Shown: piece by piece, positions 1 through 5,943 of the stretch
Position numbering within the stretch: the first letter of the stretch is position 1
Layout of the letters: every line of letters starts with the position of its first letter
Virus record (IMG/VR): IMGVR_UViG_2713897140_000009
Coordinates: 1-5,943 of that record
Origin: a virus
Lineage: Duplodnaviria > Heunggongvirae > Uroviricota > Caudoviricetes
Strand: one strand, 5' to 3'
Length of the DNA stretch: 5,943 nucleotides
Made by a program: the position numbers and the translations under genes
Notes under the pieces: generated by a model
The model's input: the letters and a program-made list of their open reading frames with translations, nothing else
What the model was told of the DNA's origin: nothing
Databases searched by the model: none

Positions 1-20
1 GCCCTGGAAATACCCCACAG

Positions 21-58
21 CCCCGAAAAAGAGCCAGTCAGTTGCTTAACTGACTGGC
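21..58 (-). terminator. Rho-independent terminator-like hairpin
   Basis: Perfect 11-bp stem GCCAGTCAGTT/AACTGACTGGC (33-43/48-58) with loop GCTT; on the minus strand the stem is followed by TCTTTTTC (complement of 24-31). Confidence 0.4.
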
Positions 59-240
59 ATTAACCGTAAGGGTTGGTTTTTTCTTGGCACGAGAGTATTC
101 AAAACGCGCCAATAACTACTTGATTTAATTGAAGTCGAAAATTTTAAGTCAAAAATCGTATAGCTTAACGTGTAGCTAAAAATGTTTGCTGCAAAAGTAT
201 ACAATTTTAACCGTTATGACTCCCTGTTATCCGCTATCAA

Positions 241-4101: not shown

Positions 4102-4145
4102 GCGCCGCTCCCGCCCCGTGGCAGGTCACTACACCGGGAGGACCC
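4102..4145 (-). other. Second cosQ/cosN-like segment, lacking the ATGTCCGGTT R-repeats
   Basis: The 18-mer GCGCCGCTCCCGCCCCGT (4102-4119) is identical to 1662-1679. It is followed after the same 14-nt spacing by a slightly degenerate cosQ (minus strand GGGTCCTCCCGG, 4134-4145). The surrounding ~75 bp is about 80% identical to 1660-1735. Confidence 0.45.
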
Positions 4146-4147
4146 AT

Positions 4148-4169
4148 AAAAAAGCCGGATTGCTCCGGC
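4148..4169 (-). terminator. Rho-independent terminator after the SSB gene
   Basis: Minus strand GCCGGAGCAATCCGGC followed by TTTTTT; a paralog of the terminator at 1709-1731. Confidence 0.6.
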
Positions 4170-4185
4170 TTCTGTTACTCGTTGC

Positions 4186-4608
4186 TTAAAACGGTATGTT
4201 ATCCCCGTACGGATCATCATTTCCCGCCTGTTGTTTTGCTCTGCTCAGTGCATCAGCAGCCTGCCCCTGTTGGCCTTTTTTGCCGCCCGGTCGCGCCGTT
4301 CTCGCACTGATTACGCTGTCTGCGATAACCTGCCAGCCCTGCCGCATTTCCCCGTTCTGTCCGGTCCACTGGCTCACCTGCATGTTACCCGCCACGCTCA
4401 GGGGTTCACCCTTGCGGTGCTTTGCCAGTGCTTCGGCCTGTCTGCCAAACGCCAGGACGGATAACCACATCGTCGCCGTTCCGTCATCGGCCTGGCTGCA
4501 CGGCAGGGGAACCGCCATACTCGCCATCGCCATTTGTGTCCCTTTGCTGGTGGTCTTTAACTGCGGGTCAGCCACCAGCCGCCCGTAAGCTGCTATCTGT
4601 GCTGTCAT
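4186..4608 (-). CDS. ssb: Single-stranded DNA-binding protein (SSB-like, 140 aa) with a C-terminal acidic IPF tail
   Basis: FGRQAEALAKHRKGEPLSVAGNMQVSQWTGQNGEMRQGWQVIA aligns with E. coli SSB [43 protein letters not shown]. Gly/Gln-rich linker and C-terminal DDPYGDNIPF (E. coli DDDIPF). Its ATG overlaps the upstream stop (ATGA). Confidence 0.75.
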   Translation of the reverse strand: MTAQIAAYGRLVADPQLKTTSKGTQMAMASMAVPLPCSQADDGTATMWLSVLAFGRQAEALAKHRKGEPLSVAGNMQVSQWTGQNGEMRQGWQVIADSVISARTARPGGKKGQQGQAADALSRAKQQAGNDDPYGDNIPF

Positions 4609-4862
4609 GCTGTCTGCTCTCCGGTTTTAACGTTGATGGTTGTCACCTGTTCCGCTTCGGCAATCTCCCGTTCTGTCAGCGTGGCAAAGTTTGCTGCCGC
4701 CGTGGTCATGAATGCGCTTATCAGTTCAGGATGTGCTTTCGCGTATCCTTCTCCCGCGTTGCGGTCGATGATTTTTATCGCCACCCTCAGCCAGTGCTCT
4801 GTAAGGTCAATGGCGCGGTTATGTTGCTTCTTCTGATTGTTAAGTTTTCCTGATGTGTGCAT
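4605..4862 (-). CDS. Hypothetical 85-aa protein between the origin and the SSB gene
   Basis: ATG at 4862 with GAGGGGGG about 11 nt upstream; stop overlaps the SSB start (ATGA), suggesting translational coupling. Family not recognised. Confidence 0.5.
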   Translation of the reverse strand: MHTSGKLNNQKKQHNRAIDLTEHWLRVAIKIIDRNAGEGYAKAHPELISAFMTTAAANFATLTEREIAEAEQVTTINVKTGEQTA

Positions 4863-4911
4863 TTTTGTTTTTACCCCCCTCGTTTAAAAAGTTTTGGAGA
4901 TACCCCCACCT

Positions 4912-5138
4912 TGTCTACCTTATCTACCTGGTGGATGCTCAGGCCAGTAATGACGCGGGTTTTATGGTGGTAGACAGTAAAAAATCTCTGTCTACCTGAT
5001 GTCTACCCATCCCTCCGACTGGCTACAAAAACAGGTAGACAAGGTAGACAGCTTGTAGACAGTAAAAAAAAGCTGTCTACCTAAATTAATACACTGAATT
5101 AAAACAACTTTTATGTAATCAGGTAGACAAGGTAGACA
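4912..5138. repeat. Iteron-type replication origin: 11 copies of the 8-bp iteron GGTAGACA/TGTCTACC in both orientations, interspersed with A-tracts
   Basis: TGTCTACC at 4912, 4989, 5000, 5074 and a variant at 4921; GGTAGACA at 4969, 5034, 5043, 5122, 5131 and a variant at 5055. Tandem pairs have a 9-bp period. AGGTAGACAAGGTAGACAG occurs twice (5032-5050, 5120-5138). A-rich tracts at 4976-4984 and 5062-5070 could act as an unwinding element. Lies directly downstream of the rep ORF. Confidence 0.65.
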
Positions 5139-5152
5139 GCAATTGCCAAAAA

Positions 5153-5878
5153 TTATAAAAACGCGTCGCAATCGTCGGTTGTTATTGCGTTAGTCTGCGT
5201 CACTCCATTAATTTTTCGCGTAATATATTCATGTCCGTAAACTTTTGCGGCTGGCTTCATGGCCTTGCCAAAGTCATTTACGTTTAGTGGTTTGGTTCTG
5301 CCTGCGTATGCCATAAACGCCAGATAGACGCGGTAAAGGCTGTTTCTGGTCGTGTACTTCACGGAATCGCCACCGCCACCCATCATCAGGCCACGTGCTT
5401 CCTCCAGAAAATTCAGGAACTGGCAAAACTCAATAACCGGATCCGTTTGCTGCTTTATCGCCAGTGCTTCATCACCGTCACGCTGTTCCAGTAGTAAAGC
5501 CCGCGCCTTTTCAGGGTCTGCAAAGTTCGCCAGTAATCGGCGGATAATGACGGGGATTTCAGCCGCAATCTTTTCCGGTAGTTCCCTGTCTTTTTCGGCC
5601 TCGTTGACGATATTGTCGAAACGGAAAATCACGCGACGACGTGCCACGCCTCCGGCCCGTTCGGTGAATATCATCGGATTGTTATTGGTTGCCAGCACCA
5701 CCGCCCTGATTACCGCCGTAAAACGCTTTTCATATTTCGGGTTAATTTCCACGGGGTCGCCGCCCGTGATTTTCTTGATGCCCGTTCCTTCGCCTGTATA
5801 TTTCGGCTGGTCTGCCAGGACGATAAGACGACTCCCGACAACCTGTGCACGCCCACCAGCATCATCAAGCGATGTCAT
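5153..5878 (-). CDS. Replication protein resembling the C-terminal region of P4-family (D5-like) primase/SF3 helicases; no Walker A in this ORF
   Basis: GSRLIVLADQ (Walker-B-like region), KKITGGDPV, VVLATNNNP (SF3 motif-C-like TNNxP), RRRVIFRFDN and ELPEKIAAEIPVII match the conserved post-Walker-A pattern of P4 alpha-type proteins as I recall it. No GxxxxGK[ST] motif is present. The ATG overlaps the stop of the upstream ORF (ATGA). Confidence 0.6.
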   Translation of the reverse strand: MTSLDDAGGRAQVVGSRLIVLADQPKYTGEGTGIKKITGGDPVEINPKYEKRFTAVIRAVVLATNNNPMIFTERAGGVARRRVIFRFDNIVNEAEKDRELPEKIAAEIPVIIRRLLANFADPEKARALLLEQRDGDEALAIKQQTDPVIEFCQFLNFLEEARGLMMGGGGDSVKYTTRNSLYRVYLAFMAYAGRTKPLNVNDFGKAMKPAAKVYGHEYITRKINGVTQTNAITTDDCDAFL

Positions 5879-5943
5879 CTCAGCGCTGATATGACTTTCC
5901 GTGTCAAACCGGAATCTCTAATTTTGACGATTTTCTTTTTAGG
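5875..5943 (-). CDS. 3' end of an upstream ORF continuing beyond the window (C-terminus ...PKKKIVKIRDSGLTRKVISALR)
   Basis: The only minus-strand frame open to the window edge; its TGA overlaps the rep ATG. Too short to identify. Confidence 0.3.
   Translation of the reverse strand, partial: PKKKIVKIRDSGLTRKVISALR

Follow-up and report, generated by a model that had tools for sequence, protein, structure and literature searches.

The stretch of DNA analysed here, called the window below, comprises the 5,943 nucleotides of the virus record IMGVR_UViG_2713897140_000009 and carries, towards its right-hand end, a minus-strand open reading frame of 241 codons (the Rep ORF) that starts with an ATG at 5878-5876 and whose stop codon ends at 5153. 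Upstream of this ATG the frame is closed by two minus-strand stop codons, at 5920-5918 and 5941-5939, and a second minus-strand frame, open from the window edge, terminates in a TGA (5877-5875) that overlaps the ATG of the Rep ORF (ATGA, 5878-5875). All of these features had been described in an initial annotation and all were reproduced, as was the assignment made there of the ORF to the part of a P4-alpha-like protein that follows the Walker A motif. A motif scan placed a Walker-B-like strand, LIVLADQ, at residues 18-24 (5807..5827, minus strand), ITGGD at residue 37, and, at 5624..5689 of the minus strand, the SF3 motif-C-like TNNNP (residues 64-68) followed by the arginine-rich RRRVIF (residues 80-85), the last two also by alignment with PDB 7OLA. 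The same scan found zero occurrences of the Walker A or P-loop pattern GxxGxGK[ST] (searched as G..G.GK[ST]) in the 241 amino acids. The Walker-B-like segment, ITGGD and TNNNP listed in the initial annotation are present, and the literal pattern RRxxIxF given with them has no match in the Rep ORF, which has RRRVIF. Residues 145-233 (5180..5446, minus strand) form a C-terminal origin-binding, winged-helix domain as judged from Pox_D5 and PDB 1KA8. A tRNA scan of the window found none.

Profile searches gave the same picture. The Rep ORF matched phrog_864 'DNA primase' (1.7e-71), model positions 124-266 of the 304 in TIGR01613 ('phage/plasmid primase, P4 family'; 1e-14), positions 41-109 of the 114 in the Pfam family DUF5906, and Pox_D5 (2.1e-05; 25.3 bits vs a cutoff of 21.4), and gave no match to D5_N. 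The uninterrupted 584-codon protein found in related islands covers TIGR01613 positions 2-266 and contains D5_N (residues 153-283, 7.6e-16) as well as DUF5906 and Pox_D5. Against TIGR01613 the score was 54.1 bits for the Rep ORF and 106.8 bits for the intact allele, both below the curated whole-protein cutoff of 108.7, and by that model the intact allele would rank as a relative of the family and not as a trusted member. Residues 488-576 of a full-length relative, which correspond to residues 145-233 of the Rep ORF, matched PDB 1KA8, the P4 origin-binding domain (7e-06). For its helicase core PDB 7OLA ranked first among solved structures (1.2e-14), with residues 197-443 only being alignable. 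In this alignment the Walker A sequence GDGNNGKGT of 7OLA lies opposite GDGGSGKST of the relative and its Walker B opposite LIVLAD, the LIVLADQ of the Rep ORF pairing with the segment VIGDDVP downstream of the aligned Walker A. 7OLA, labelled 'DNA primase' by the search tool and, together with 7OM0, taken by us to be the SaPI5 primase-helicase, can be aligned in Walker A and Walker B of its helicase core, and comes from a different island family and a different host. At the level of sequence, these matches confirm the Rep ORF as a Walker-A-less C-terminal fragment of a P4-alpha/D5-type helicase-initiator. Over the first 208 residues of this intact protein (L004 4981-5600) no Pfam primase catalytic domain was detected, even at E<=10. 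What can be recognised in the intact 'DNA primase family protein' is limited to D5_N, the SF3 core and the origin-binding domain, so the 'primase' label is a provisional one for this variant of PICI Pri-Rep.

Directly downstream of the Rep ORF lies a cluster of iterons (4912..5138) with nine exact GGTAGACA octamers in both orientations, organised in repeat units of about 85 bp. Only 0.11 such octamers are expected in this interval, and none of 200 shuffles (0/200) reached nine. P4 alpha is a protein of 777 amino acids; the intact relative has 584, and the two are distantly related. They have in common the SF3 helicase core, the C-terminal winged-helix origin-binding domain and adjoining octamer iterons in both orientations. 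Judging from the layouts of P4 ori/crr and of pri-rep/ori in phage-inducible chromosomal islands (PICIs; PMC6092414), we presume that 4912-5138 is the replication origin of the island, that is, the DNA that the lost initiator would have bound. The window has one 85-bp unit more than L003, L005, L014 and L019, indicating that the number of origin repeats varies between strains.

In the annotations of four related islands (L002-L005) the genes are those for an integrase, an AlpA-like HTH protein, Icd-like proteins, DUF4222, Pri-Rep, SSB, a lambda-E-like capsid homologue and a head-decoration homologue, and the Pfam families Phage_cap_E, HDPD, SSB and DUF4222 were found among products of the island. 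The gene set by which we recognised a PICI, namely int, alpA-like, pri-rep, ori and capsid and head-decoration homologues within about 10-12 kb, was present, and on gene content the host element is classed as an EcCICFT073-like PICI. EcCICFT073 itself has a capsid and head-decoration pair like that of this island, requires pri for its replication, and upon deletion of pri-rep shows a roughly 100-fold decrease in transfer, and the Pri-Rep proteins of E. coli PICIs differ in sequence from P4 alpha (PMC6092414). The island studied here follows the gene order of EcCICFT073 (integrase, AlpA-like HTH, DUF4222, pri-rep, iteron origin, SSB, capsid, head-decoration) and differs from it in that its pri-rep is cut by ISSso6 and in that the island at yejO/narP is only putatively inducible. 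An Rfam search at gathering thresholds of the window and of L003 found nothing in the window. In the early region of the L003 island, next to the Icd-like genes and outside the window (4115-4300 and 4690-4778), it gave two matches to C4 antisense RNA (75 and 74 bits) and one to isrK; this island of PICI type carries, in other words, an immunity module resembling those of P4 and P1. Window positions 1-79 have no counterpart in the otherwise 99.9%-identical islands of L003, L004 and L005, with which similarity starts at base 80; in the source strain the island probably has another boundary here or has taken up a further insertion.

Complete E. coli genomes were searched by megablast with window positions 4900-5943 (1044 nt). 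The intact 'DNA primase family protein' genes, hundreds in number, matched this query only from its position 57, which is window position 5887, and among the matches listed (405 genomes covering most of the 1044-nt query) three of the top ones included the IS end, matching the query in full, and the rest began at position 57. Base-level alignment revealed a sharp breakpoint at 5887/5888, beyond which 5888-5943 is unlike the intact gene and the same as the DNA that follows a transposase gene. These 56 nucleotides (5888..5943, minus strand) are the last of the right (3') end of the insertion sequence ISSso6, since they agree at 100% with the DNA that lies 3' of the transposase gene (IS110 family) of L001, L003 and L005, and equally with the right end of each of seven other copies of ISSso6. 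Both in-frame stops sit within this end. The open stretch in the other frame has 22 codons in the window, most of them within 5888..5943, and continues through 5887-5878 to the TGA at 5877-5875; in full it comprises 47 codons, nearly all of them within the 3' non-coding region of the IS, and is called as a gene only occasionally (L014 3861-4004). The stops and the upstream ORF are ISSso6 end sequence and do not belong to the rep gene. Comparison with the empty sites of L002 and L004 identified nine further nucleotides of the rep gene 5' of the ATG (AG CGC TGA G; 5879..5887, minus strand), of which the AG at 5887-5886 is the dinucleotide present at both IS junctions.

The empty site is found in strain FDAARGOS_943 (L004), whose island is that of L003, shares its chromosomal position (yejO/narP side) and its IS21-truncated integrase, and contains an uninterrupted primase gene of 584 codons. 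Over the whole Rep ORF the window and the intact L004 gene differ at 0 of 735 nucleotides, and the N-terminal part of the L004 gene differs from the fragment in L003 at a single nucleotide in 1022. In L003, L005 and L018 an N-terminal fragment is followed by the IS110 transposase gene and then by the 241-aa ORF. Deletion in silico of ISSso6 together with one copy of AG restored a single 584-codon frame, the true upstream rep codons, 1523 bp away, coming into phase once the IS was removed. On this frame the Walker A motif GDGGSGKS occupies residues 317-324 of the intact allele, the insertion falls in codon 341, and the Rep ORF equals codons 344-584 of the ancestral pri-rep gene, its start codon being the native internal Met344. 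The initial annotation had pointed to the sequence beyond position 5943 as the place to look for the primase and Walker A regions, and in the IS-bearing relatives an N-terminal fragment with both D5_N and Walker A does lie there, beyond the IS and in frame after its removal. Of the two observations named in the initial annotation as speaking against its reading, the first, an unrelated gene upstream together with an intact rep elsewhere, was made by half, in that the next gene upstream encodes an IS110-family transposase; the other one, a 241-aa protein that fails to match the C-terminal profiles of D5/P4 primases, was contradicted by the matches to TIGR01613, DUF5906 and Pox_D5. The upstream product of L018, a locus that agrees with the window at 100% over 4791 nt, ends in ...GDGGSGKSTFTHIASLLAGKQNTV followed by RQYDFP*, its last six residues being IS-encoded. 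Such agreement, 100% over 4791 nt, is shown by the assemblies GCA_900450475.1 and GCA_900449825.1. FDAARGOS_943 and the O121 strain 201805972 (L003) share the island and the IS21-truncated integrase and differ by ISSso6, forming a near-isogenic before/after pair. Elsewhere in the FDAARGOS_943 record the ISSso6 end matches at 16 places, yet the primase target is empty. Given these junctions and the empty site, we consider it nearly certain that the Rep ORF is the 3' remnant of the pri-rep gene of an EcCICFT073-like PICI, cut by ISSso6 in codon 341.

In L003, ISSso6 occupies 6536-8056 (1521 bp) and is co-oriented with the rep gene. The NCBI pipeline PGAP names its product 'IS110-like element ISSso6 family transposase' or 'IS110 family RNA-guided transposase', and in L013-L018 precomputed Pfam annotation places a DEDD transposase of 375-391 aa with PF01548 and PF02371 directly upstream of the Rep ORF, outside the window. 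The transposase gene is flanked by 125 nt of non-coding sequence on its 5' side and 265 nt on its 3' side. Comparison of element ends revealed subterminal inverted repeats of 13 bp, ATGACTTTCCGTG at a distance of 5 nt from the left end (beyond the window) and CACGGAAAGTCAT at 3 nt from the right end, the latter at 5891..5903 on the minus strand. Elements of the IS1111 type are recognised by subterminal repeats, a non-coding region downstream of tnp and a specific target, which they pick via RNA from that non-coding region (PMC11187229). ISSso6 has in common with them the DEDD transposase with PF01548 and PF02371, the subterminal repeats, the downstream non-coding region and a short conserved target, and by the criteria of PMC11187229 it is assigned to the IS1111-type members of the IS110 family.

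The target was defined by comparison of the primase site with seven further ISSso6 copies, which represent five additional distinct loci. All six independent sites carry GTAAG at the left junction and (A/G)G(C/T)G at the right one, giving the consensus GTA-AG|CG, and the repeat at the junctions consists of the AG dinucleotide only, with no long target duplication. The rep codons GTA-AGC-GCT (Val-Ser-Ala) spell this target, which is the simplest reason why the gene is broken at this position, and we infer that the site was chosen by RNA guidance. The 3' non-coding region of ISSso6 contains AGCGCTT, GTAAG and ATATCAGCG. With so many k-mers compared, matches this short would be expected by chance, and the three are no more than possible guide parts of a seek/bridge RNA. 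A k-mer search for guides in the non-coding ends of the element returned AGCGCTT, TTACTG and ATATCAG, none beyond chance, and for this reason no guide is claimed. The Rfam search of the window and L003 found no bridge or seek RNA family, and a literature search for ISSso6 gave incidental mentions only.

The exact junction was present in 4 of 5426 complete E. coli genomes, and an index of public assemblies contains the exact 241-aa product in 76 of its blocks. Every public assembly read with its upstream DNA had the right junction (7/7), and every one reaching far enough upstream had the left junction (6/6). The divergent island of VL40, located near clpS, carries the same IS (L001 6243-8360 compared with L003), with zero mismatches over about 300 nt on each side and divergence beyond. 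Homologous recombination has apparently carried the segment with the IS from one related island to another. Independent recurrent insertion in the two island variants through strong targeting was considered and rejected, since the identical flanks of about 300 nt in VL40 fit a single event followed by recombination. All IS-bearing copies of the ORF are identical in nucleotide sequence except that of VL40, which has 11 differences, all synonymous and all beyond the recombined tract; as the ORF has not changed since the insertion, neither decay nor selection after the split can be read from its sequence. In several genomes (L001 and L014-L017) the N-terminal half is further damaged by IS4-like or IS1 elements. 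Other members of this island family also show decay or variation. In some assemblies, such as L013 (6391-7445), the capsid homologue is split into Phage_cap_E pieces of 155 and 180 aa, and in L017 (3521-3979) the distance from the left to the right IS junction is greater by about 205 bp, an additional ORF of 78 aa being called there downstream of the transposase gene and ahead of the right junction.

The 241-aa product could nevertheless act on its own. Translated from Met344 on read-through transcripts, a stand-alone origin-binding fragment might bind the GGTAGACA iterons with its P4-type winged-helix domain and serve as a copy-number brake or as a block on related incoming islands. Isolated C-terminal domains of P4 alpha do bind ori, and here the origin-binding domain is intact, the iterons adjoin it, the IS and the gene are co-oriented, and the allele occurs in the many assemblies counted above. 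Against this, a promoter and terminator scan of 4850-5943 found nothing like a sigma-70 site in 5879-5943 of the minus strand, leaving IS-driven expression without support, and inspection of the sequence before the ATG found no usable Shine-Dalgarno, the sole purine-rich stretch there being a GAG that directly abuts the ATG, with GGAAAG about 20 nt upstream. Moreover, the ORF is identical to the corresponding part of the intact allele, so that it shows no adaptation and no signal of selection after the split, and the surrounding island is decaying in some genomes, which have a truncated integrase, a frameshifted icd-like gene and a partial ash. We hold such a function to be very unlikely, and the suggestion of the initial annotation that the protein is a stand-alone origin-binding/helicase-C protein loses its ground with the discovery of the uninterrupted allele. 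A dominant-negative action of the truncated product on the GGTAGACA iterons, blocking related incoming islands or silencing the crippled island, is an equally improbable outcome; if true, the IS insertion would have created a new satellite-exclusion factor, beyond a mere pseudogene.

A natural division of the initiator, in which a polypeptide with Walker A and the C-terminal polypeptide described here assemble into a helicase, had also been proposed. Gene callers do predict two products in L018, one of 346 aa with D5_N and one of 241 aa, and both halves are undamaged in some strains. The cut, however, goes through the P-loop ATPase core and leaves Walker A on one side and Walker B on the other, the halves are kept apart by a mobile element that brings a transposase gene of its own, and the N-terminal product ends in the six IS-encoded residues. 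An identical uninterrupted allele exists, most of the listed genomes match from position 57 as expected of a contiguous gene, the exact junction is confined to the 4 complete genomes among 5426, and the N-terminal half has been destroyed further by IS4-like or IS1 elements in L001 and L014-L017. On these grounds we regard a split of functions over two polypeptides as very improbable. Scarcely any credence is left for a frameshift pseudogene, that is, a small sequencing or mutational indel near 5880-5920 in a continuous gene, which is suggested by the window-internal picture only (the in-frame stops and the open frame in another phase that overlaps the ATG) and is refuted by the empty-site comparison, as the sequence upstream of 5887 has no similarity to rep in any frame and is identical to the right end of ISSso6, and the codons that truly precede it are found at a distance of 1523 bp, in phase after removal of the IS; of that earlier proposal the pseudogene stands, and its cause is a 1521-bp insertion in place of a frameshift or indel.

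According to the insertion model, ISSso6 entered codon 341 of the 584-codon pri-rep gene at GTA-AG|CG, a sequence matching its preferred target. The 5' part of the gene with D5_N and Walker A lies about 1.5 kb past the end of the window, which retains the right end of the IS and codons 341-584, and the first in-frame ATG after the IS-borne stops is the native Met344, giving rise to the apparent 241-aa ORF. P-loop NTPases are not expected to yield an active SF3 ATPase when the P-loop is apart from Walker B, motif C and the arginine finger. Here the insertion has left the P-loop with the N-terminal piece and the other three elements with the C-terminal one; neither half should be a working SF3 ATPase, and we infer that the pri-rep gene is dead. 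No observation speaks against the insertion as such, and the conclusion on function is tempered by the co-orientation of the IS, which permits read-through transcription, and by the intact origin-binding domain.

The disruption as such is already annotated, since RefSeq (PGAP) records both halves as pseudogene fragments, labelling each 'incomplete; partial in the middle of a contig' and the Rep ORF as 'primase-like DNA-binding domain-containing protein, incomplete, missing N-terminus'. The finding matters mainly for correct annotation, in that the Rep ORF should not be mistaken for a novel, minimal type of Rep protein. It also teaches that stop codons and an 'overlapping upstream ORF' at the end of a window can be the terminus of an insertion sequence. 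As a by-product, the clean before/after pair and the GTA-AG|CG consensus could help to map the guide RNA of ISSso6. For the island itself, the insertion would mean the loss of its own replication initiator with the iteron origin left intact, and in the source strain it is probably replication-defective and at best dependent on the initiator of another island.
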